Source: Eledone cirrhosa (taxonomy: Eukaryota). From it: a DNA stretch of 64,000 bases. Shown in pieces: positions 2,631 through 58,372 of this stretch. The notes beneath the pieces were generated by a model. It saw nothing but the letters and a program-made list of their open reading frames with translations. It was not told the origin of the DNA and did not search any database. The position numbers and the translations under genes were made by a program. The stretch's first letter is position 1. Every line of letters begins with the position of its first letter. The stretch is from positions 28,396,001 to 28,460,000 of the forward strand of contig OZ024752.1 in the NCBI GenBank assembly GCA_964016885.1, written 5' to 3'.

Positions 2631-3546
2631 CGAACAAGGGGGATAACATAGATAATTTGAGGCCCATAACTCTGCTAAACACAGAGTTCAAGATGTTGGC
2701 CAAGGTGCTAGCAAAGAGGTTGGCGCTTGTCGTTGGTGGTCTGGTGGGAGAGGCGCAGACATGCGCCATTCCAGACAGATCTATCCACGACAACCTCCAC
2801 CTCATGCGATACATCGTGGAGAGGGTAGCTAGATTACTTGGCACGGGTGGGTCCTTGAAGGATGCGGAAGATCCGTGTCAGTATATGCGGACGATGTCAC
2901 CGTAGTGGTGTCGAACGCCAAACACATCGAGGCGATCGGCACTGCACTAAGAGAATACGAAGCGGTGACAGGAGCAATGATCAACCAGGAAAAGTCGGTA
3001 TGCCTGCAGCTCGGCACCTGGAGAGACGGGTCCATGCCGTCCAACAGCATCGTCGGGCGCTCGACGGACGGACCGGTTAAATTGCTAGGGGTCTGGTTCG
3101 GTCCGGACCTCCAGACGGAGAAAAACTGGGACGAGGTTACGAGCAGGGTGGCTTCTCTCACCCAAAAATGGGCAGAGAGGAAGTTATCCCTGAAAGGTCG
3201 AGTGGAGGTGGCGAATGCGTACATCGCGTCCGTCATCTACTGCCACCTGACCGTCGTACCTTGTCCTAAGCCACGCCTGACTGCGCTGGAGCGTTTTCCC
3301 TTTCGCTTTTTGTGGAAGGGACGTGCTCCGATGGTCAGGCGGTCCATCTGCTGTCAACACCCACTACGTGGAGGGCTGGGCCTGTCGTGGCTGATGATGC
3401 GCAGACATGCGCTCAGGCCACGACATCTCCACCTCTTCCTCGACGGTGATCAGGTGTGGTCGCCGTTTGCTAGACACGTTTTTCCCCAGCTCGTCTCCTT
3501 GACGGAGCTGCAGTCCTGGGTCAAGCGAAGACTGAGAGCGAGCGCT

Positions 3547-3549
<3 letters not shown>
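2631..3549 (+). mobile_element. Tx1/L1-clade LINE reverse-transcriptase fragment (internally deleted, inverted relative to adjacent 3' piece)
   Basis: RPITLLNTEFKMLAKVLAKRL, SVYADDVTVVV, KLLGVWF and GGLGL motifs. Clearly homologous to the ORF at 6354-7916. Confidence 0.85.
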
Positions 3550-3999: not shown

Positions 4000-6495
4000 G
4001 AGTGTTTAAATGTTTAATAACGGTGTGTGAAAGACACTCATCCAGCAAGTGCCCCCTTGGTGTTGGAGGAAGAAGAAAGAATGGGATAAGAACCAACTGG
4101 ACGAAAGAATTGAATAGAACTGTCGTGAAATGTTATCTGAAGAGTAACCCTATGGAAAAAGGCTATAGGAAACGGATGCATATCATATGGAACCAGATTG
4201 GTCTATTTAAATTAGGTGAACAAAAATTGTAATAAGAACTAATGGATGGATAAGTAAGTTGGAACTGGAGGAACTGAACAGAGTCATTGAGTTGGAAATC
4301 GAGAGTGGAGTATATCAGGCAAATGAGCGAGTGGGGGAAATGAAAGTGAAGAAGTTGAGAGACCTGAGTAAGCAACCGAAGCAGACAATGATCTGAATAC
4401 TGAAATAAATAACATCTGGAACAAAGATGCGGCCATTGAGGAAATGAATGCTGACGGGCTAGGGCAAGATTTTGTTGATATCCTGAACTTAGTGGTAGAT
4501 GAAATGAACAATGATAGTGGGAAAGCTATGAGCCTAAGATTTGTAGACAGGAAAAAGTTAAAAGAAACAACAATTAAGGTAAACAGAGTCATACCATACC
4601 TTGAGGCGAGGAACCTTCACCAATGCAACAATATCCTCAAAGCAACCGCAAATGTGGTGAAAAAGTTACTTGGTATAAAAACGAGAGGAAACAACAAACA
4701 AGAAAGATCAGAACCTTGGTCGTAGAAACAACTGGAAAGATCAAATCAAGGAAATGAGAAAAGACATCGAAAAGCTTGAGTCTTTACTGAATGGGACATT
4801 ACAAAACATAGACACTAAAGATAGATTGAAAATAAAATACAAAACGAAGGGAAAAGAGCTAAATGTTATCATAGAGGAACTGAAGCAACGCATTGTAGCA
4901 AAAAGTGCAAAGATTAGGCGGTATAGACAGAACCGCATGTTTGACAATAACCAGAAGATGTTGTTTGAACAGCTTGGGCTGAACAGACTAAGACATGCTG
5001 GAGAGGAATATGGGAGCAGGATGTTGAACATAATAGTCAGGCAGTGTGGATTGAGACAGTTCAAAGGGGAATTAGTGAACAAGCACACCAACAACCTGAT
5101 GATTTGAGTATCACAGCTGAAACTCTTAACGGGCAGGCCAAAAACCTAACCAGCTGGAAATCACCAGGCCCAGATGGTGTGCAAGGATATTGGATAAAAA
5201 ATATAACATCTCCCCACCCAAAACTGACAGCCATGTTCAATGACTGGTTGATGTTGGGTGAAGTACCAGACTGGTTGACAAACGGTACCACAGCTCTGGT
5301 AATGAAAGACCGAATCAAGGGTAATGAGGTTACCAACTATCACATGCCTATCCGTAATGTGGAAACTGTTAACAAGCATTGTGTCTGAGGAAATGTACTA
5401 TCACCTCCACATAAACAACTTGTTACCGGACTAACAGAAAGGATGCCGAAAGAAGTCCCGTGGTCCAAAAGACTAGTTGCTTATTGATAAGATGGTAATG
5501 AGGAATTGCAAGAGGAGAAACACTGGTCTTGCCATGGGATGGATAGATTACAAAAGGCATTCGACACGGTACCTCATTCTTTGAAAACCAAAAGCCTAGA
5601 GATCTTCAAGACAGCTATTAAGTAAAAGTATGAAGTCCTGGGAAACAGAGCTAACATCAGGTGAAGATCAAGAGAGGTATCTTCCAAGGAGATAGTTTGT
5701 CCCCTCTGCTGTTTGTCCTTACCCTCATACCCCTGTCCCTCATATTGCGAAAAGTGAGAACAGGATACAAGTTGGGAAGAGGAGAGCTTACCATCAACCA
5801 CCTCCTCTTCATGAACGATCTTAAACTCTTTGGGAAGAGTGAGAAGGAATTGGATTTATTTGTTGACACTGTCCATATTTTTAGCAATGTTATATGTATA
5901 GTATTTGGTGTTAATAAGTGTGGAGCCCTAGTGATGAAGAAGGGTAAATTGAGCAGAAGCAACGGAATCCAGGTACCAACAGGTGAGATGATAAAGGAAA
6001 TTGACACTGAAGAGGGATACAAATATTTAGGTTTTCTGGAGGGAGATGACATCAAGAAGAAAAAAAATGAAGGAATTGATAAGATCTGAATACATAAGGA
6101 GAGTAAGGAACATACTAAAATCACATCTAAATAGTAGGAATGTCATAAGTGCAGTAAATTCCCGAGCTGTGTCTATTATTAGGTACAGTGCGGGAATTCT
6201 GAAATGGCATGTTACTGAACAAAAAGAAATGGATAGAAAGACTAGGAAGCTAATGACTATCTACAACACGTTCCACAAGAGGAGTGATGTTGATAGACTC
6301 TACTTAAAGAGATCTGAAGGTGGAAGAGGTCCTATCAGCATAGAGAACTGTGTTCAGATGGAGAAAAACAGTCTGCACAAATATGTGTCTGACAGTAGGG
6401 AGCCAATGCTCAGAATTGTACTGAAGGAGAAGACAATATACCAGGGGATGCCCAAGGAGGAAGAGCAACCTTCATGAAAAATCCCTTCATAACAC
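4000..6495 (+). mobile_element. Decayed R4/Dong-clade (RLE) non-LTR retrotransposon, RT region
   Basis: KSPGPDGVQGYWIK, RGIFQGDSLSPLLF, INHLLFMNDLKLF, YKYLG and DVDRLYLKRSEGGRG motifs across frameshifted ORFs with several stops. Confidence 0.85.
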
Positions 6496-6496
6496 C

Positions 6497-9400
6497 TTCT
6501 CAAGCCTACTGACTTTTCCGGGTTAAGTTTTGCTCCCGTCAACCTTTCATATTCCTCCAATAAGTTGCCGACCACCTCGATTTCTGAGGTGTCCGACACC
6601 ATCACGGTGATGTCGTCCGCATAAGCCGACACAGCCTTTCCGCGTCCCGGTTCCAGCGGGATGCACTGCAACAGCTCCAGCTTCCGCAGTAAGGCCTCGA
6701 GAGTCAATACGTACAGAAGGGAGGAGAGAGGGCACCCTTGACGGACCGATCGGGAGACCTGAAACGGTTCCGAGAGATGGCCATTAATTTTGACCATCGA
6801 GCAGGTACTGCTGTGCATTGGAGTGATCCAGCTTCTGAAGACGGGGCCGAAGCCAGCCGCCTTGAGGACAGCTCCCAGGTACCGATGGTCGACCCTATCG
6901 AATGCTTTCGATTGATCTAAATTGATCAAAGCCCCACCGAAGCCAGGTTTACACCCTACCCTCTCTATGAGGTATCGCATTAGGTGGAGGTTGTCGTGTA
7001 TGGACCTGGTTGGGATTGCGCAAGTTTGCGCCTCCCCAACCAAATCCCCGACGACAAGCGCCAACCTCTTCGCTAACACCCTGGCCAAAATCTTAAACTC
7101 TGTGTTGAGCAGAGTTATGGGCCTGAAATTGTCTAATGTATCCCTCTTGTTCTCGTCTTTCCTTATCAGCGTCACTACGCCCCGGCTCACAGAACTGGGA
7201 ATACTCCCATTTTGCTGCCAGTTGCAGTAGAGGGCTTCGAGGAGATTGGAGAACAAGTATGGCATATTTACGTAAAGCTCGTAGGGCAGACCATCCAAAC
7301 CGGGTGACTTGCGCCTCATGCAGCCTACAAGGGCATCCTGAATCTCGGCTGAAGTAATTGGCCTTTCGCAGCGCCCAGCGTCAGCCGTCGAGAGTTGCGG
7401 CAAGCCATCGAGGTAGGGGCTGAAGTCCGCCACCATCTCTGACCCGCCACTTCCCCCGAACAACCGAGCAAAATGTTGGCGAAAGGCCTCACACATCCTC
7501 TTGGAATCGCTCAGCTCGAGCCCGTCTCGGTCCGTCAAAGACCTAATCGTGGTTTTATTACCACGCTGCGCCTCTGCCACGCGGGCCCATCGAACAGCTT
7601 TGGTTCCCTCGTTTCTCAGAGCACGCGCCTTAGCTCTGACAATGCAACCTTCGTGTTTCGCATTGAAGAAATGGTCTAATGCCATTCTCGCCGCTAGCAC
7701 ATCAGTTGCAATGCCACTACCAATAGCCTCGTCTAACTTATCTACCAACTCTCCCTCCTTTCTATTTTTCTCTAATGCTACTTCTTTGTTAAACTCTATC
7801 GCCATTACTCTAATCTCTCTTTTAAGAGCCCCCCACCATCTATTGTTGACGACTCCCCCTGTCAACTTTTTCTTAACTAAATTGTTGACCTGGTCTCTGT
7901 AAGCCTTACGTGCCAAAATGACATGTTTAGCTTCCAGTAACCAGGTCCTAACCTACGCGTCTTATCTAGGTCGACCATACAGATCACAAACTTGTGATCT
8001 GAATAGGCGACCGTTTCAAAACGTGGACAGCTTACACTATTTCTGTCTATTTTCCTAATGAATATCCTGTCTATATACGATCTAGAATACCCTATGCGGT
8101 TAGCCCAGGTCCACACTGGCGCATTAGGGAAATCTAGTCGGTACCTGTCAGACAGTTGGAACTGGCTGATCAGGTTCTTGAGGCTTTTGCACCCCCCGCT
8201 CCTATCGGATACTCCCACACAGTCCCAGCGTGCGTCTAAGATGCCCTTCCAGTCCCCCGCTAACAGTAAAGGGCGAGATGTACCCAGAAATGCTTCCAGG
8301 CGTCTAAAGAAGTCCGGCCGTCCTGCCCCAGTAGGAGCATAGACGGCCACCAGTCTAAAGGCACCACCTTCATTATTGTTCACGTCCAGGACCACCAACT
8401 TCCCGTCCGGGTCCCGGAAGATCGACCTTACCTCGAGATCCAGGCCTTTCCTAAACAGCACTGCCACCCCGCCTCCCATTCCCGGCTGGCAAACAGATGC
8501 AAAGATCTGATAATCGTCGAAAATGGGGGCTATGCGCGCGTGTCGGAAATCCTGGTCTCGCTGACTGCAATTACACCCATTTCTATAGACCTGAGGTCGT
8601 TGAGCAGGTGACCCTGCTTCCAGGACGATCCCAGGCCTCGAACATTTAAACATCCTACTCTTAGTACGGCCATGTTGGCAGGTTAAACAGAGAGAGAGGA
8701 AGGTTTACTTACCTTCCGGGCTCTTGTGAAGGTCGGGTTGTTCGACCTCCATAGTTAATGGGGTTTCTTTTGGGAACCCCTTTAAAAGTCTTGAAGTGGG
8801 TTTTACGTTCAGGGTTCCCACGTCCCGAGGAAAGCTGTCTCGTATTTCTTTGAATATGTCGAGCGACATTCGCACCAGAACCAAATCTTCCGGCACGCGA
8901 AATGTGCTCGATTTAAACATTTCCCCCTCTTTTTGTATACTTTCACTTCGTGCTACGAGGGCCATCAGTTCCTTGTTGGCCCTCCTGACGAGCACGAAGT
9001 TTTGTATGTTTTGTTGGTGTGATTTTATTTGTTTGCGTGGCTGTGGTGGTGATGGTTTTGGTGGTGTTGTTTCGGTTGTATCTGTGTTTATTGTGAGTGC
9101 GATGTCTGTGGTTTCAGATGTTTGTGTGTATATTTGTTTTTGCGTCTGTTTCGGTTGTTTGCGTTTGGGGGATTCTGGTGATGGTGATGGTGGTGTTGAT
9201 GTTGGTGTTATTGGAGAGATGTTTGCGTGGGTGGTGTCTGCGTTTTTTATTGTGGGTGCTTTTGTGCTTTGTTGAGTTTTTTTTTCTTTTTGTTTCCTTT
9301 TTTATATTTTGGGGGATTTGGGATTTCCCTCATCTTCACTACTGGTAGATGAAGGGTCTGTGTTTGTAAGTGTGTTTGTATGTATGTTTAAGGTTTTATT

Positions 9401-11535: not shown

Positions 11536-14500
11536 GGATCTGGTCGGGTTGCGCAAGTTTGCGCCTCCCCAACCAAATCTTCGACGACTAGCGCCAACCT
11601 CTTTGCTAAGACCTTGGCCAGAATCTTAAACTCTGCATTGAGCAGAGACATGGGCCTGAAGTTATCTAATGTGTCCTTCTTGTTCTTGTCTTTCCACTAC
11701 GCCGCGGCTCACAGAACTGGGATTACTCCCATTCTGCTGCCAGTTGCAGTAGAGTGCTTCGAGGAGATCGGAGAACAAGCCTAGCATATTTACGTAAAGC
11801 TCGTAGGGCAGACCATCCAAGCCGGGTGACTTGCGCCGCGTGCAGCCGACAAGGGCATCCTGAATTTCGGTTGAAGTTATCGGCCTATCGCAGCACTCAG
11901 CTTCGGTCGCCGAGAGGCGCGGCAAGCCGCCGGGGTAGGGTCTGAAGTCCGCTACCGTCTCTGTCCCGCTACTCCCCGCGAACAACTGAGCAATGTGCTG
12001 GCGTAAGGCCTCACACATCCGCTTGGAATCGCTCAGCTCTGGTTCCCTCGTTTCTCAGAGCACGCGTCTTAGCTCTGACAATGCAACCTTCGTGTTTCGC
12101 ATTGAAGACATGGTCTAATGCCATTCTCGCCGCTAGCACGTCGGTTGCAATGACACTATAAATAGCCTCGTCTAACTTATCTACCAGCTCCCACTCCTTT
12201 CTATTTTTTCTCAAACGCTACTTCTGATCTCTCTTTTGAGAGCCTCCGATCTCTTGTTGACGACCCGCCCCACCCCTCTCAACTTTTGCTTAACTAAATT
12301 GTTGACCCGGTCCCGGTAAGCCTTACGTACCGGAAATGACATGTTCAGCTTCCAGTAACCAGGTCCTAACCTACGTGTCTTATCTAAATCGACCATGCAG
12401 ATTACAAACTTGTGATCTGAATAGGCGACCATTTTAAAACGTGGACAGCTTACACTATTGCTATCTATTTTCCTAATGAATATCCTCTATATACGATCTA
12501 GATGAACCTATGCGGTTAGTGCAGGTCCACATTGGCGCATTAGGTAAATCTAGTCGGTACCTGTCAGACAGTTGGAACTGGCTAATCAGGTACTTGAGGC
12601 TTTTGCACCCCCAGCTCCTATCAGATGCTCCCACACAGTCCCAGCGTACGTCTAAAATGCCATTCCAGTCCGCCGCTAACAGTAAAGGACGAGACGTACC
12701 CCGAAACGCTTCCAGGCGTCTACAGAAGTCCAGCTGTCCTGCCCCCGTAGGGGCGTAGACGGCCACCAGTCTAAAGGCACCACCTTTGCTATTGTTCACA
12801 TCCAGGACCGCCAACTTACCGTCTGGGTCCCGGAAGATTGACCTTACCTCGAGATCCAGGCCTTTCCAAAACAGCACCGCCACCCCATCTCCCATTCCCG
12901 GCCGACTAACAGATGCGAAGATCTGATAGTCGTCGAAAATGGCGGCTAGTGCGCGCGTGTCGGAAATCCTGGTCTCGCTGATGACAATTATATCCATTTC
13001 TAGAGACCTGAGGTCGTTGAGCAGGTGACCCTGCTTCCAGGGCGACCCCAGACCTCGAACATTTAAATTTCCTACTCTTAATATAGTGATGTTGGCAGGC
13101 TAAAAGAGAAAGGAAAGGTTTACTTAGCTCCCGGGCTCTAGTGAAGATCGGGTGGTTCGACCTCCATAGTTGGTGGGGTTTCTTTTGGCAACCCCTTTAA
13201 AAGTCTGGATGTGGGTTTTACGTTCGGTGTTCCCATGTCCCGAGGCAAGCTGTCACGTATCCCTTTGTAGAAATCGAGCGACATTCACACCAGAAACAAA
13301 TCTTTCAGCACGCGAAATGTGCTCGATTTAAAAATCTCCCCCTCCGTTTAGATTTCTTTACTTCGTTCTACGAGGGCCATCAATTCCTAGTTGGCCCTTC
13401 TGACAAGCACGAAATTTTGCATGCTTTGTTGGTGCGGTTTTATTTTTGTGTGTGTCTGTGGTGAGGATGGTTTTGTTGTTTCGGTTGTGTCTGTGTTTGT
13501 TGTGAGTGCTGTGTCTGTTGTTTCAGAGGTTTGTGTGTGTATTTGTTCTTGCGTCTGTTTAGGTTGTTTGCGTTTGGGGGATTCTGGTGATGGGGATGGT
13601 GTTGGTGGTGTCGATGTTGGTGATGTTGGGGATATGTTTGCGTGGGTGGTGTCTGCATTTTTTATTGTGGGTGTTTTTGTGCTTTGTGGAGTTTTTTCGT
13701 CCTGTGTTTTCTTTTTCTTTTTTTTATTCTTTTTTGTGGGATTGTGGTTTTCCCTCATCTTCACTACTAGAAGTTTGAGGGGTCTGGGTCTGTAAGTGTG
13801 TCTGAGTCTGTGTGTGTTTATGTTTTTATTCATATGTGTAATTTTGCGGGGAGGGGGAATTTGACAGATTTTCTCGTTTCCCCCTGGGTGTTCAATGTTG
13901 GTGGTGGTCCTTCCATTGGTGTTGTTGGTGGTGGTTTTGCCGGTGCTGGTATTGGTGGCGGTGTTGGTCCTCGCCCCGGCATCAACAGCAGTGGACCCCT
14001 TCAACCATTTGCATCTTTCAGCAGTTGGGAGCAGAAGGCTCGCAAATGGGTTTTTTTCTTCGAAAACGAAACAATGAGGCCTTTTACCATCGGTCATAAT
14101 ATGTATTACCGTCCCGTTCTGAAGACAGATGTGGTCCGGGATTGTTTTTTACATTCTCCAGCCTGATCAGGAGAAGTATCTCCGGACCAGTCCTCTCTAG
14201 CAGTCCTTGTAACCTCTATCGGGACGGTATCCGTCCCCTCCACAATCACACATCCCCAAAGCCACCACATGTCAAGTCCTGGTGGGATACTGGGAATGCG
14301 GTATGGAGCTATTCTTTTTCCCATGTGGGAGGAGTACATTATGACCTTGCTTGTTTTTCAAGGGGTCATTGCATGTTTTATAGCGAGGGCTTCTGACTAA
14401 AACATCACCGAAATGGTGCTGTATTGTCTGCCCTTCGCGGCTTCAACACGCGGCTTCAATATCTGCCTGTGCAATTAAAGCTACCCTCTTTGTTTCTACT

Positions 14501-14868: not shown

Positions 14869-17162
14869 AAGGGCGGTGGATTGGCAGTATCTGTAGAGGG
14901 CCGGACGCCATGGTAGGGCGGTGGCTTGGCAGTATCTGTAGAGGGCCGGACGCCATGGTAGGGCGGTGGCTTGGCAGTATCGGTAGAGGGCCGGACGCCA
15001 TGGTAGGGCGGTAGATTGGCAGTATCTGTAGAGGGCCGGACGCCATGGTAGGGCGGTGGCTTGGCAGTATCTGTAGAGGGCCGGACGCCATGGTAGGGCG
15101 GTGGATTGGCAGTATCTGTAGAGGGCCGGACGCCATGGTAGGGCGGTGGATTGGCAGTATCTGTAGAGGGCCGGACGCCATGGTAGGGCGGTGGCTTGGC
15201 AGTATCGGTAGAGGGCCGGACGCCATGGTAGGGCGGTGGCTTGGCAGTATCGGTAGAGGGCCGGACGCCATGGTAGGGCGGTGGATTGGCAGTATCGGTA
15301 GAGGGCCGGACGCCATGGTAGGGCGGTGGATTGGCAATATCGGTAGAGGGCCGGACGCCATGGTAGGGCGGTGGCTTGGCAGTATCTGTAGTGGGCCGGA
15401 CGCCATGGTAGGGCGGTGGCTTGACAGTATCTGTAGAGGGCCGGACGCCATGGTAGGGCAGTGGATTGGCAGTATCTGTAGAGGGCCGGACGCCATGGTA
15501 GGGCGGTGGATTGGCAGTATCTGTAGTGGGCCGAACGCCATGGTAGGGCGGTGGCTTGGCAGTATCGGTAGAGGGCCGGACGCCATGGTAGGGCGGTGGA
15601 TTGGCAGTATCTGTAGTGGGCCGGACGCCATGGTAGGGCGGTGGATTGGCAGTATCGGTAGAGGGCCGGACGCCATGGTAGGGCGGTGGATTGTCAGTAT
15701 CGGTAGAGGGCCGGACGCCATGGTAGGGCGGTGGATTGGCAGTATCGGAAGACGGCCGGACGCCATGGTAGGGCGGTGGATTGGCAGTATCGGTAGAGGG
15801 CCGGACGCCATGGTAGGGCGGTGGCTTGGCAGTATCGGTAGAGGGTCGGACGCCATGGTAGGGCGGTGGATTGTCAGTATCGGTAGAGGGCCGGACGCCA
15901 TGGTAGGGCGGTGGATTGGCAGTATCGGTAGAGGGCCGGACGCCATGGTAGGGCGGTGGATTGGCAGTATCGGAAGACGGCCAGACGCCATGGTAGGGCG
16001 GTGGATTGGCAGTATCGGTAGAGGGCTGGACGCCATGGTAGGGCGGTGGCTTGGCAGTATCGGTAGAGGGCTGGACGCCATGGTAGGGCGGTGGATTGGC
16101 AGTATCTGTAGAGAACTGGACGCCATGGTAGGGCGGTGGATTGGCAGTATCGGTAGAGGGCTGGACGCCATGGTAGGGCGGTGGATTGGCAGTATCGGTA
16201 GAGGGTCGGACGCCATGGTAGGGCGGTGGATTGGCAGTATTGGTAGAGGGCCGGACGCCATGGTAGGGCGGTGGATTGGCAGTATCGGTAGAGGGCCAGA
16301 CGCCATGGTAGGGCGGTGGATTGGCAGTATCGGTAGAGGGCCGGACGCCATGGTAGGGCGGTGGCTTGGCAGTATCTGTAGTGGGCCGGACGCCATGGTA
16401 GGGCGGTGGCTTGACAGTATCTGTAGAGGGCCGGACGCCATGGTAGGGCGGTGGATTGGCAGTATTGGTAGAGGGCTGGACGCCATGGTAGGGCGGTGGA
16501 TTGGCAGTATTGGTAGAGGGCCGGACGCCATGGTAGGGCGGTGGATTGGCAGTATCGGTAGAGGGCCGGACGCCATGGTAGGGCGGTGGATTGGCAGTAT
16601 CTGTAGAGGGCCGGACGCCATGGTAGGGCGGTGGCTTGGCAGTATTGGTAGAGGGCCGGACGCCATGGTAGGGCGGTGGATTGGCAGTATCGGTAGAGGG
16701 CCGGACGCCATGGTAGGGCGGTGGCTTGGCAGTATCGGTAGAGGGCCGGACGTCATGGTAGGGCGGTGGCTTGGCAGTATCTGTAGAGGGCCGGACGCCA
16801 TGGTAGGGCGGTGGATTGGCAGTATCGGTAGAGGGCCGGTCGCCATGGTAGGGCGGTGGATTGGCAGTATCGGTAGAGGGCCGGACGCCATGGTAGGGCG
16901 GTGGATTGGCAGTATCGGTAGAGGGCCGGTCGCCATGGTAGGGCGGTGGATTGGCAGTATCGGTAGAGGGCCGGTCGCCATGGTAGGGCGGTGGATTGGC
17001 AGTATCGGTAGAGGGCCGGACGCCATGGTAGGGCGGTGGATTGGCAGTATCGGTAGAGAACTGGACGCCATGTTAGGGCGGTGGATTGGCAGTATCTGTA
17101 GAGGGCCGGACGCCATGGTAGGGCGGTGGATTGGCAGTATCGGTAGAGGGCCGGACGCCATG
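14869..17162 (+). repeat. 45-bp minisatellite, 51 units, made of the SINE 5' end (Pol III A-box region)
   Basis: Unit GTAGGGCGGTGGATTGGCAGTATCGGTAGAGGGCCGGACGCCATG recurs every 45 nt from 14871 to 17121. Confidence 0.97.
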
Positions 17163-26886: not shown

Positions 26887-27336
26887 ATTGTTATACTTTG
26901 TGAGGGTCATGTTGCCAATAAGAAACACACGCACCAGTTGCTTTCACTTCAATTTATTATAATAAATTTATAAATTTAAGAATTTATAAATTTCCGGTTG
27001 GTTGGTTCCACAACCAGATGGTTGTTTATATATTGTCAAAGTTCTTTCGTCACACATTCTGTGACATCTTCAGTGACTTGTTTCAGAAACAAGATGACGT
27101 AGGACGGAACAAAGGAGAGGCACAAAAACAAAGAAAAGAATCCCCAGTCACTGAAGAGGTCACAGAATATCTGACGAAAGAACTTTGACAATATATAAAC
27201 AACCATCTGGTTGTGGAACCAACCAACCGGAAATTTATAAATTCCTAAATTTATAAATTAATTATAATAAATTGAAGTGAAAGCAACTGGTGCGTGTGTT
27301 TCTTATTGGCAACATGACCCTCCCAAAGTATAACAA
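26887..27336. mobile_element. Fold-back element with ~190-bp inverted arms, each with a hammerhead (27035-27077 -, 27147-27189 +)
   Basis: 26887-27078 is the reverse complement of 27146-27336. Motif GTCA-CTGAAGA-(g)GTCA..TGAC-GAAA-GAAC-TT^-TGAC. Confidence 0.8.
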
Positions 27337-41780: not shown

Positions 41781-43040
41781 CCAATGTCAATAGAAGCTTC
41801 ATATTGTGGATTTTGAATAGAGAATGTTTACCAATATCCAAATGTATGTCGAGTAATATCATGAAACCATAATCACCATCCTCCTCTTAATTACCCTCAT
41901 ACTGATCATCATTGTCATCGTTAGCACAACCTTTATAATCCTGATCATATCATTAGCACCAGTAATGCGCTGGAGTCGATATAATCAACTTTCTCCTTCC
42001 CAGAATATTGTTGGCCTTCTCCCTAAATCAGAAACAATTATATTTCATATAATTTAAATGGCTAAAGTAACGACTCATTCCACGTTGTCATACCTAGTAG
42101 TGTTGTAATTCGGAGTTAAGTAAGAACGATATAACACACTGCAACTGCTGTGAATCAGATCAGCTTACCTTGTCGTGCCTAACAATAAATATGTTATATT
42201 GTTGCTGCTGACAATGGTTTTGATTTAGGTACAAGGCCAACAATCTCGGTACATGGTGAAAGCCGATTATATTATCTTCAGTCCTTGTCTGATATTTCAT
42301 TTGATCAACTCTTCGAAGATGAAAGGCGCAGTTGCGTCGGCTGGATTTGAACTCAGAATGATAATACCAGAACCAATACTGCAAAGACATTACATCCGAC
42401 ACCCTGCCACTCTGCAACTTCATCACTGTCACTGGCATAATCATATTTACTATATTGATGAGTTATTCCATAGTTTGCATCTTAAATATATCTTAATGGC
42501 AGTCAGAAATAACATGTTACTGTCAACTTACAAATTAATAGTGCTTAGAGCAATGCCGGTTTGATCAGTTGTCAACATAACATGGCATGTCTATAAATCT
42601 ACATTAAATCGAAATAGTAAGTTAAGAAGTTAGACTCTAAAGTAAACTTTAAATCGAATAGATCATGTAAAAACCGTGATAGGTTCTATATTTTATGGCA
42701 TAAAATTGAAAGAATTGTGAACAAATATGGTTTGTCTTGTGTTCACATACATTTATCTATTGAGAAATTGAAAAGATAATTTCCACTTAACAGATGCAGT
42801 TCTTCTGTTAACGATATACATTCATGGACATATTCGATGTCTGCGACATTTTCGTACTCAACCAGCCTTATGTATATATAAATTATAGATATAGTACAAT
42901 CTTATGAAGGACTAGTGTCCTAAACGTTAAAACTATTTTCCTACTATTTCAAGCGTTAAACTAATATATTACTTCATTGTACTGTGTCCTTTGCTTTGTT
43001 ATTTCTGTCTACGTTTTATATACATGCATATATATATATA

Positions 43041-45332
<2,292 letters not shown>

Positions 45333-54968: not shown

Positions 54969-55269
54969 CGAAGGAGTTGTGGTTAGGAACCAGATGTACC
55001 ATAACGCACCAGAGTACTCAATACTTAGGGTAGCAGAGTGAATAATAGGAAAATGTATGAACCCGACGGCAGAACTCAAGCCGTTTCGGCGGCTATTTCG
55101 ACGTCTATGACCAGAAATAGCCGTCGAAACGTCTTGAGCTCTGCCGTCGGGATCATACATTTTCCTATATATATATATATATATCAAATGTATATATTGA
55201 GTTAGAAACACAAAATAGTCTCTTACAATTAAATAGCTCAAAGAAAGAGATTTTTCCGAGCCGTATATT

Positions 55270-55642
55270 ATAATTGAATATAAAAGAGACATAAACAAAG
55301 ATATATACATATATGTGTTCAAATCGTAAGGGACCAGATTCGCTAGGGTGAAAAAGATACTAACTATGAACAATAGGGTTTGCCAGACTCAATTTAAGAA
55401 TAAATCAAGAAAATAAATACAAACTGATATTGTGGAACAACCAGACACCTTGACGACGTTTGGTGATGCTGTTTCACAATTTAATTATGAAGAGAATTAC
55501 CAATTCTTTTGCTAATCAGTGGGTGTAAAATTAATAAACTCCTCACTCCTAAGTATCTCAGAAGAGATATTGTGGGTATATAAAATAGCGCATATAGTTT
55601 GTATCTTTTTCACTCTAGCGAATCTGGTCCCTTACGATTTGA

Positions 55643-55702
<60 letters not shown>

Positions 55703-55726
55703 TTATCTCTCTTTTATATTCAATTA
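55270..55726. repeat. ~100-bp inverted repeat, one arm with an expanded (TA)n(TG)n tract
   Basis: 55270-55368 is reverse complementary to 55592-55726 (GTGTTCAAATCGTAAGGGACCAGATTCGCTAG). Confidence 0.8.
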
Positions 55727-55747
55727 TACTACATATATATATATATA

Positions 55748-57658
55748 TATATTTTCGAATATTCTATGTTTGTCTTCACATATATATCTCTATTTCAGAG
55801 CATTTTATCCAAATTCTAATTTCTGTCGGACCGGCAACCGCTCTTTCAAACCAGTTCCTGTACACAGCTAAGTATTCTATAAGTCTCTAGCTGTGTCATT
55901 CTCGATAAAAGCACTGGATATGTAATCCTGATTATTTCTAATAAGAATGAAACGCGTAGGTTACTTCCCTTGCTTTTATCGAGAATCTCAAATTGTAATA
56001 CGTGACGTATTCTATTCTATAGCGATTGGGTCTTCGAAATGTTTATTATAAACATACAGAATATTTTCGAATATTCTATGTTTGTCTTCACATATATATC
56101 GCTATTTCAGAGCATTTTATCCAAATTCTAATTTCTGCCGGACCGGCAACCGCTCTTTCAAACCAGTTCCTGTACACAGCTAAGTATTCTATAAGTCTCT
56201 AGCTGTGTCATTCTCGATAAAAGCACTGGATATGTAATCCTGATGATTTCTAATAAGAATGAAACGCGTAGGTTACTTCCCTTGCTTTTATCGAGAATCT
56301 CAAATTGTAATACGTGACGTATTCTATTCTATAGCGATTGGGTCTTCGAAATGTTTATTATAAACATACAGAATATTTTCGAATATTCTATGTTTGTCTT
56401 CACATATATATCGCTATTTCAGAGCATTTTATCCAAATTCTAATTTCTGCCGGACCGGCAACCGCTCTTTCAAACCAGTTCCTGTACACAGCTAAGTATT
56501 CTATAAGTCTCTAGCTGTGTCATTCTCGATAAAAGCACTGGATATGTAATGCTGATGATTTCTAATAAGAATGAAACGCGTAGGTTACTTCCCTTGCTTT
56601 TATCGAGAATCTCAAATTGTAATACGTGACGTATTCTATTCTATAGCGATTGGGTCTTCGAAATGTTTATTATAAACATACAGAATATTTTCGAATATTC
56701 TATGTTTGTCTTCACATATATATCGCTATTTCAGAGCATTTTATCCAAATTCTAATTTCTGCCGGACCGGCAACCGCTCTTTCAAACCAGTTCCTGTACA
56801 CAGCTAAGTATTCTAAAAGTCTCTAGCTGTGTCATTCTCGATAAAAGCACTGGATATGTAATCCTGATGATTCCTAATAAGAATGAAACGCGTAGGTTAC
56901 TTCCCTTGCTTTTATCGAGAATCTCAAATTGTAATACGTGACGTATTCTATTCTATAGCGATTGGGTCTTCGAAATGTTTATTATAAACATACAGAATAT
57001 TTTCGAATATTCTATGTTTGTCTTCACATATATATCGCTATTTCAGAGCATTTTATCCAAATTCTAATTTCTGCCGGACCGGCAACCGCTCTTTCAAACC
57101 AGTTCCTGTACACAGCTAAGTATTCTATAAGTCTCTAGCTGTGTCATTCTCGATAAAAGCACTGGATATGTAATCCTGATGATTTCTAATAAGAATGAAA
57201 CGCGTAGGTTACTTCCCTTGCTTTTATCGAGAATCTCAAATTGTAATACGTGACGTATTCTATTCTATAGCGATTGGGTCTTCGAAATGTTTATTATAAA
57301 CATACAGAATATTTTCGAATATTCTATGTTTGTCTTCACATATATATCGCTATTTCAGAGCATTTTATCCAAATTCTAATTTCTGCCGGACCGGCAACCG
57401 CTCTTTCAAACCAGTTCCTGTACACAGCTAAGTATTCTATAAGTCTCTAGCTGTTTCATTCTCGATAAAAGCACTGGATATGTAATCCTGATGATTTCTA
57501 ATAAGAATGAAACGCGTAGGTTACTTCCCTTGCTTTTATCGAGAATCTCAAATTGTAATACGTGACGTATTCTATTCTATAGCGATTGGGTCTTCGAAAT
57601 GTTTATTATAAACATACAGAATATTTTCGAATATTCTATGTTTGTCTTCACATATATA
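55748..57658 (+). mobile_element. Retrozyme-like tandem array: 6 x 312-bp non-coding units, one type I hammerhead per unit
   Basis: Exact 312-nt period (CGAATATTCTATG at 55756, 56068, 56380, 56692, 57004, 57316, 57628). Each unit has GTAATC-CTGATGA-t TTC taataa GAA t-GAAA-CGCG-TA^-GGTTAC, with cores at 55928, 56240, 56552, 56864, 57176 and 57488. Flanked by (TA)n. Confidence 0.88.
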
Positions 57659-58372
57659 TATATATATGAAAAAGTTTGTCCTCATCAGTGGCCATCCAAC
57701 CGTCGTAGGCATTTCGTCGCATTAGAGGCCATATACCTCAGGTTGGTGCGAGCAACGGCTAAAAAAAAGTCGTTGGGACACGTAAATAAGGGGGACGCTA
57801 GGGTGAACGAACAAAATGGTTTAAGCAGCAGAAAGTAATGAAGAAGGAAACAAGTCCCAGATTTCTATGAATATAAATTCGGTGAAATCGTGAACGAGAG
57901 AATAAAGACCATCAAACCTGGTTGAAATGTGAGCAAGGAAGGAATTTCGCACAGGTCTAACGGGAGGAAGAAGGGGTCTGGTCTGCGAATTCGGTAAACT
58001 TAAGTTTTGTGAAGTCGCAGACGAGAGAGAGAGAGAAAAAAAATTCATACCGGCTTGGCCAAGTGCCCGCGAGAAAAAGGAATACGGACAGGTGAAACGG
58101 GAAGAAAGGGGAGGAGGAGAGGTAGTGACAGAGAGTGAGTGAGTGAAAGGTGAGGAAGAGGCTAACAGAGAGAGAGACTGCTAGAAGGGGTAAAGACACA
58201 AAGAACGAAACAGACCGGTGGCAGCAGAGGAAAAAATATATGTGTAAATATGATAATAATGGAGCTGCGACGCTGCAAATGGGTTACATATGAAAAAGTT
58301 TGTCCTCATCAGTGGCCATCCAACTGTCTGCATGTATGTATATATATACATACTACTGTACGTCTCTATACA

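Follow-up and report, generated by a model that had tools for sequence, protein, structure and literature searches.

The tandem array at 55749-57659 of the window (the whole 64,000-nt stretch of DNA analyzed here) represents a recent insertion of a non-LTR retrozyme, which is non-autonomous and belongs to a class of element that has already been described. The locus was probably produced by rolling reverse transcription of one circular monomer by a Penelope-type reverse transcriptase (RT), judging from the units, insertion ends and variants of the family to which the array belongs.

The array and its units

A tandem-repeat call on 55749-57659 (+ strand) gives a period of 312, 6.1 copies and 99% matches, and comparison of the units agrees with the first-pass annotation of this DNA, which had described six 312-bp units: six are full, each 0-3 nt from their majority, and 39 matching nt follow (Table 1). 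An overlap of ~35 nt had been noted at the end of the array; it is there, at 39 nt, and is not a family property, the 3′ end being fixed and the 5′ end lying at position ~1 by chance. The 5′ end of the window's array falls at ATAT beside a (TA)n tract, giving the appearance of a whole-number array. The units are separated by 8 single changes, and one private variant is common to all of them (57A>T, at 55805, 56117, 56429, 56741, 57053 and 57365), being fixed at the window locus and at none of the other members of the 71-locus sample described below. Position 57 is also the sole difference between unit 2 and the family majority.

No ORF of 150 amino acids was found in the array and no ORF of note in unit 2, nor was there in the array an RT plus GIY-YIG ORF, the mark of an autonomous Penelope-like element. 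The traits of a non-LTR retrozyme, tandem units of some 150-400 bp at less than 45% GC (here 312 bp and 35%) that encode no protein, were found in a dispersed multicopy family lacking an LTR/PBS/PPT frame. The identification as a retrozyme, made in the first-pass annotation, is borne out by these ORF-less ~300-bp units, by their type I hammerheads and by the dispersal of the family. Its description of the array as cephalopod is consistent with the mollusc-type hemocyanin genes of the host genome, which have seven units each, an arrangement that we take to be octopod-like.

Table 1. Features of the retrozyme array, in window coordinates.
Feature	Position	Strand	Basis or remark
Left (TA)n tract	55732..55750	.	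5′ truncation joined via ATAT microhomology
Retrozyme array, 6 x 312 bp + 39 nt	55749..57659	+	Single-armed insertion, "short" 3′ end
Hammerhead, unit 1, core broken (G8U at 55933)	55922..55964	+	Unit comparison
Unit 2, reference unit (position 1 = 56061)	56061..56372	+	35% GC
"Tail" (unit positions ~31-66), bounded by the short and long 3′ ends	56091..56126	+	Holds the 17-nt motif
Locus-private variant 57A>T	56117	+	In 6/6 units
16-bp helix enclosing the ribozyme	56210..56298 (56210-56225 with 56283-56298)	+	Present in each unit
Hammerhead, unit 2, intact, predicted cut after 56270	56234..56276	+	Sequence, Rfam, descriptor
Hammerhead, unit 3, stem I closing pair lost (C56551G)	56546..56588	+	Unit comparison
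Hammerhead, unit 4, stem II mismatch (T56873C)	56858..56900	+	Unit comparison, descriptor
Hammerhead, unit 5, intact	57170..57212	+	Rfam, unit comparison, descriptor
Hammerhead, unit 6, intact	57482..57524	+	Rfam, unit comparison, descriptor
"Short" 3′ end, unit positions 30-39, running into (TA)n	57650..57659	+	End mapping
Right (TA)n tract, target site	57652..57667	.	Read from sequence

The hammerhead ribozyme

In unit 2 the parts of the motif are as they had first been described: stem I (56234-56239/56271-56276), CUGAUGA (56240-56246), GAAA, a palindromic ACGCGU, and a GUA with a predicted cut after 56270, i.e., after unit position 210. Stem II begins with U.U, followed by 4 bp. The label "minimal", by contrast, does not apply: helix III is present, with a palindromic insert, and the motif has the "canonical" metazoan type I form (helix I of 6 bp, helix II of 4 bp, short palindromic helix III), which is reported to work as a dimer, whereas the minimal hammerhead of the same paper is without helix III and loop 3 (PMC4209133). 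Both boxes had been reported as intact in every unit; this holds for five of the six cores, and unit 1 carries G55933T (CUGAUUA). Fully intact hammerheads are found in only three of the six units (2, 5 and 6), and units 5 and 6 provide the two consecutive complete motifs which the 2026 preprint (bioRxiv 10.64898/2026.07.22.740005) uses as a criterion (at least two). The 16-bp helix proposed to enclose the ribozyme has 16 of 16 pairs, and a helix of altered sequence lies at the same place in an older 329-bp relative.

When the unit was shuffled 20,000 times with its dinucleotides preserved, 1 shuffle satisfied the hammerhead descriptor (either strand counted), and a descriptor scan of the minus strand of the array gave no hammerhead. 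Rfam reported nothing at gathering level in the array; units 2, 5 and 6 gave no more than weak matches to Hammerhead_HH9 (E 0.28, 19.9 bits against a gathering score of 52). A pattern scan of metagenomes returned 0 matches. The circular monomer folds with z = -3.5 against 200 shuffles; the minus strand folds too (z = -4.3), so that folding alone gives no polarity. The active stem II, opening with its U.U, has a probability of only ~8% in the circular monomer, and for the genomic dimer a double-hammerhead fold lies 0.9 kcal/mol above the minimum free energy.

Across the 71 loci, 216 of 231 cores are intact, and stem III is palindromic in its commonest forms. The first-pass annotation had suggested looking for covarying stems, and the old 329-bp relative does covary in all stems and in core pair 3-8, which changes from C-G to U-A in that family (7 rows CG, 8 rows UA), U3-A8 being a described natural hammerhead variant (PMC4209133). 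Over an alignment of 15 rows, 93.8% of cells are paired and 8 of 14 pairs have changed on both sides; the rows are related and represent two or three lineages, so this covariation amounts to few independent events. The enclosing helix was left out of the count, there being a one-column offset between the families in the alignment, and in one row, p071, the alignment of stems I and III is faulty. Selection on the ribozyme, as suggested by these few events, lends support to the circle as template. The cleavage position is occupied by G in all units at L067 and in five of six at L046, so that arrays with a presumably poor ribozyme exist.

A dispersed family with two fixed 3′ ends

Searching the genome with the unit gave 242 matches among the best 40 scored of 439 candidate places. 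The 30-nt ribozyme core has 619 exact copies in the genome, and a 17-nt motif (unit positions 38-54) has 21,542, sister subfamilies included; the reversed control gave 0 for each. Among the first 100 matches listed for the motif, array periods of 310, 311 and 312 occur and arms reach 11 units. Between the 310/311-bp sister subfamily and the 312-bp unit there are differences at 14-15 positions, and a third unit type occurs at L071. The older 329-bp relative, 63% identical to the unit and with 1089 candidate places, has kept the 17-nt motif. Run X1 was considered as another species and rejected, its majority alleles being those of this genome's 310-bp sister subfamily. Dispersal at (TA)n, anticipated in the first-pass annotation, was found at hundreds to thousands of loci with unrelated flanks, and these copies exclude the contrary case that it had named, a dead pLTR duplicated at a single locus. 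The youth that it ascribed to the insertion was also confirmed, and the family is still active, to judge from arrays with 13 of 13 identical units.

Insertion anatomy was read from 71 loci: the window, 39 other best unit-search loci, 11 from a second search, and 20 of 26 new chromosome-1 loci. Since 51 of the 71 were chosen by best score, the sample is biased toward long, young arrays. Two adjacent head-to-head arms, with their 3′ ends outward, make up 47 of the 71 loci, one arm having a short end (unit position ~30-39) and the other a long one (~57-72, mode 66). The rest comprise 4 loci with one odd end, 19 that are single-armed (9 short, 10 long), and 1 irregular locus; the variant and pairing counts disregard arms below 40 nt, so that L174 and L176 count as single-armed. 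No short-short or long-long pairing occurs among the 71. Such ends run into (AT)3 in 112 of 120 cases. Two further loci of the 310/311-bp subfamily obey the short-plus-long rule, and the 329-bp relative has the same two 3′ ends.

The 5′ ends are scattered round the unit (chi-square p = 0.08), and the arm junctions are mostly overlaps of a few bases (microhomology). The "variable phase" expected of dispersed arrays is thus true of the 5′ ends and untrue of the 3′ ends, which keep to two fixed sites separated by ~35 nt. The lengths of the two arms show no correlation (rho -0.05, 46 loci), implying that neither was made by folding back and copying the other; fold-back copying was rejected because either arm can be the longer one (the short-ended arm in 26 of 46).

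An inverted, 5′-truncated arm with a 30-40-nt tail at one end is the Penelope pattern (PMC8557442, PMC3846280), and the tail has been traced to two internal RT starts, the protein cutting and extending both DNA strands (PMC11167929). The two inverted arms and two fixed 3′ ends of the retrozyme family, the main diagnostic and one that the first-pass annotation had missed, are this Penelope "tail" signature: all 47 of the two-armed loci whose ends are canonical pair a short end with a long one, and the inverted 5′-truncated arm, the microhomology junction and the (TA)n target are all present. The window holds a single-armed member of the family with the short end. That end is presumably where target-primed reverse transcription started at this locus, and the tail the probable RT start region.

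Local duplication after insertion is real as well, and has changed the unit number at several loci. Variants alternate or occur in blocks within one arm at L044, L042, L061 and L065. L189 and L190 (G000:C1, ~211.77 and 212.24 Mb) are segmental duplicates of one insertion event, sharing the arm junction and having different unit numbers in both arms; unit number is therefore not a pure count of RT turns. A different kind of complexity was observed at L053:3490-4274, where one (TA)n tract contains both a young 312-bp insertion and, next to it, an old relative of the 329-bp type; a short stretch is triplicated internally at the junction of the insertion.

Template record and proposed cycle

Variant records over the 71 loci comprise 136 fixed (24 distinct), 211 singletons, 19 partial, and 41 seen once. 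If one monomer is copied repeatedly, inherited variants should appear in all units of both arms and later ones in one, and this is the pattern seen. Of 114 variants observed more than once where both arms cover the site, 100 are present in every unit; there are 14 private fixed variants, and all 10 of those covered by both arms occur in both. Units are identical across both arms at L197 (13/13) and, with one exception, at L196 (13/14), and the two loci differ from each other. In the 312-bp set the predicted cut site is crossed 240 times with 0 indels at 205-216. These locus-wide shared variants and the scarless cut site lend indirect support to the rolling reverse transcription of a circle that the first-pass annotation had suggested.

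The cycle that we favor would begin with transcription, on the + strand, of an array with at least two ribozymes. By analogy with the class, adjacent hammerheads would come together through their palindromic stems III and cleave as a dimer; the 312-nt monomer thus set free would be circularized by a host ligase. A Neptune-type Penelope protein (RT plus GIY-YIG) might then bind the tail and cut both strands of a (TA)n tract, whereupon the two DNA ends would act as primers within the RNA, with reverse transcription starting at ~30-39 from one and at ~66 from the other; these end positions are observed, and the enzymology is modeled on that reported in PMC11167929. Both RTs would travel on one circle, or on sister circles with a common source, each going a variable distance; microhomology would then join the two cDNAs head to head, or one end would be lost, as in the window. 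Some arrays would later gain or lose units by local duplication.

The strongest alternative, unlikely in our estimation, is that Penelope proteins mobilize uncleaved multimeric transcripts, copying each once, with local duplication making the units uniform and the ribozyme and circle being side matters. Ribozyme mutants leave Poseidon insertion in vitro unaffected, unprocessed RNA being the main substrate (PMC11167929); eight of nine Xenopus retrozyme dimers are reported not to have cleaved, and a local amplification model is discussed in the same preprint (bioRxiv 10.64898/2026.07.22.740005). The local duplications in this genome (L044, L042, L061, L065, L189/L190) are also in keeping with this alternative, as are the arrays with G17 (L067, L046) and two variants that are mirrored only. 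A multimeric template, however, would leave unit-specific variants at the same turn of both arms, and there are 6 mirrored variant rows (mirrored-only at L184 and L190) versus 102 unmirrored. Every nested haplotype would need a master homogenized on its own (there are 24 distinct fixed variants), while the 211 singletons stay unhomogenized beside inherited variants that fill all units. The arms of source arrays average ~630 nt, so RT should often reach the source's 5′ junction; a third, re-inverted segment is found at 0 of 71 loci, and a shared junction only in the segmental duplicates L189/L190. The covariation of stems and core between relatives likewise counts against it.

Improbable, and more so than the multimer, is the cleaved linear monomer as template, with RT copying again and again by jumping from the 5′ end of one monomer to the 3′ end of another. 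Unit-level uniformity would be accounted for in this way, as would occasional mosaics: 14 singletons match variants fixed elsewhere and the arms differ at L054 and L169. Such mosaics, which need template switching or mixed templates, count against the single circle. A fixed 1-nt insertion at L197, two bases after the cut and in an interval that is indel-free in the 312-bp set, would also fit the linear monomer and likewise counts against the circle. Jumps of this kind should leave RT stops or scars at 210/211, yet all 240 crossings are free of indels, 5′ ends at 208-214 number 1 of 125 (2.8 expected) with no pile-up at position 211, and 95 of 120 arms are longer than one unit. A satellite, an assembly artifact, or a dead pLTR duplicated locally in tandem is a very improbable origin for the locus and is refuted for the family: unit number can shift after insertion or in assembly (L189/L190) and no run contig spans the array, but the same two 3′ ends recur, amid unrelated flanks, at dispersed loci numbering in the hundreds to thousands, and the window's units differ by 8 single changes while sharing their private variant.

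A separate observation comes from run X4 (kind unrecorded), coded as another organism, which gave over window positions 56191-56532 a single self-closing unit near the L177 haplotype, without flanks or flanking repeat. It is a single 342-nt contig (312+30), the length expected of a closed cycle with 31-letter words, and a tandem transcript would look the same; as a hint only, the unit could come from a related species, from carry-over, or from a free circle.

A candidate Penelope helper

Mobilization by a Penelope-type protein is shared by the circle and the multimer as templates, and it is the firmer conclusion. Among the 10,597 GIY-YIG candidates of the genome are RT plus GIY-YIG ORFs of 930 and 1025 amino acids with the CxxC linker of the Neptune/Nematis type. 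The pLTR at L100 has a U3-A8 hammerhead whose stem III is palindromic and which lies ~142-150 nt short of the TA end, compared with 132-141 nt in the retrozyme, and in an Atlas search the L100 protein falls among HTH_animal/GIY-YIG clusters. The tail signature points to the Neptune-type elements of this genome, and they provide a candidate helper.

The search for a partner covered 48 Penelope loci (the 30 best of 150 scored GIY-YIG matches and 18 long-ORF stretches, of the 10,597 candidates). No pLTR matching the unit was found among the 48; older relatives, and small hammerhead elements in nested positions, were all that turned up. The L100 element itself (L100:7435-7398, - strand, with the downstream pLTR) is of Neptune type, in partial tandem, with an ACCGGU palindrome, and the 5′ part of the ORF in this copy appears frameshifted.

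A>G changes and possible editing

Among distinct fixed variants A>G accounts for 8 of 24, against 12 of 197 singletons (Fisher p = 3e-4), rising to 11 of 24 once positions 24, 280 and 288 are polarized by the sister subfamily (Fisher p = 1e-6); the contrast with T>C alone is weaker (p = 0.09 and 0.013). All four UAG triplets on the ribozyme strand, one of which contains the cleavage base, show A>G, versus T>C at one of nine mirror CTA sites (p = 0.007); several of the UAG changes occur in single units, and positions 177 and 212 could not be polarized. Clustered A>G changes in run X6 are absent from X1 (different samples, kind unrecorded).

ADAR prefers UAG. One tentative reading, about which we remain doubtful, is that a single circle is copied by a Penelope dimer from both DNA ends and that A-to-I edits to it would be written into the germ line, RNA editing thereby steering the evolution of the element; an edit of the cleavage base, which lies in a UAG, would on this same joint reading switch the ribozyme off and stabilize the circle. 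Wobble (G.U) tolerance and RT misreading are rival sources of the A>G changes.

Neighboring and related elements

An inverted-repeat element at 55266-55731 adjoins the array (arms 55291-55367/55594-55670 and 55266-55314/55683-55731). This appears to be a further non-autonomous element with two arms, its (TA)n end having served as the target of the array. Further upstream, at 55045-55168, is a 55-bp near-perfect hairpin; similar sequences at L109 (~6130-6270) and L120 suggest a dispersed family in (TA)n tracts. Two more opposite-strand hammerhead pairs, at ~800-1190 and ~27040-27200, each recur at other loci and likely represent other two-armed hammerhead families. A small two-armed element with a hammerhead region 74% like the 312-bp unit was seen at L109:7500-7710 and L111:5130-5330.

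The window also has a broken Penelope-like RT remnant in two frames at 42965-44314 (+ strand), and Pfam gave no score for its Penelope-like fragments. LINE-like RT and endonuclease fragments lie at 2833-3549, 6354-8704 and 12473-14148, and 51 copies of a 45-bp unit at 14870-17162, resembling the start of a dispersed repeat that flanks L035 and L053.

Comparison with known systems

Non-LTR retrozymes and their circles were described in PMC7229834, where rolling reverse transcription was proposed and Penelope elements were named as candidates; phylogenetic links to pLTRs, mainly in vertebrates, are reported in bioRxiv 10.64898/2026.07.22.740005. A literature search, mostly outside subscription journals and repeat databases, found no paper on a cephalopod retrozyme, and within the same scope (few subscription journals) none that reports the tail signature from retrozyme arrays or deals with retrozyme editing. 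What is new here is the insertion record; the rolling-circle step and the helper are proposals.

How animal retrozymes return to DNA is a matter of proposals, for the helper enzyme as for the rolling-circle step (PMC7229834, PMC7761336). A two-start signature at essentially every insertion, together with a single-template record per locus, makes this open mechanism testable in vitro, with a 312-nt substrate, mapped start sites, and candidate helper ORFs in one genome. In PMC7761336 retrozyme repeats are described as without a motif pointing to a helper; the tail signature is such a pointer. The strict pairing of short with long ends is relevant in turn to the way in which a Penelope dimer employs its two starts, and to the question of template polarity raised in PMC3846280.

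Among metazoan non-LTR retrozymes (coral, mussel and axolotl, PMC7229834; Xenopus, bioRxiv 10.64898/2026.07.22.740005) there are the same ORF-less ~300-bp tandem units with GC under 45%, the same single type I hammerhead per unit, a self-paired fold, and co-occurring Penelope-like elements; axolotl HHR_Amex2 even has the U.U at the base of stem II (PMC7229834). The published elements, as described in these sources, are tandem repeats only, whereas the family reported here has two inverted arms and two fixed starts. Circles have been shown for the coral, mussel, axolotl and Xenopus retrozymes, and the present family is known from genomic DNA.

The pLTRs of Neptune and Poseidon (PMC11167929, PMC8557442, PMC3846280, PMC4209133) share with it the head-to-head, inverted, 5′-truncated arms with a 30-40-nt tail at one end only, the (TA)n targets, the microhomology junctions, and a hammerhead that lies upstream of the RT starts and has a palindromic stem III; the U3-A8 variant is common to both as well. 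They differ in that the retrozyme is without an ORF, has whole-unit tandems of up to 11 per arm where theirs are partial, and gave no sequence match to the pLTRs of the 48 sampled loci. Chlamys MRC1 (PMC8557442) is likewise a non-autonomous Penelope derivative with multicopy head-to-tail insertions; the Chlamys elements are described as mostly without hammerheads, and are algal and of another clade. Hammerhead viroids and viroid-like circles resemble the unit in size, branched fold and ribozyme; unlike them, the retrozyme is encoded in the genome and, by the descriptor, has its ribozyme on the + strand only.
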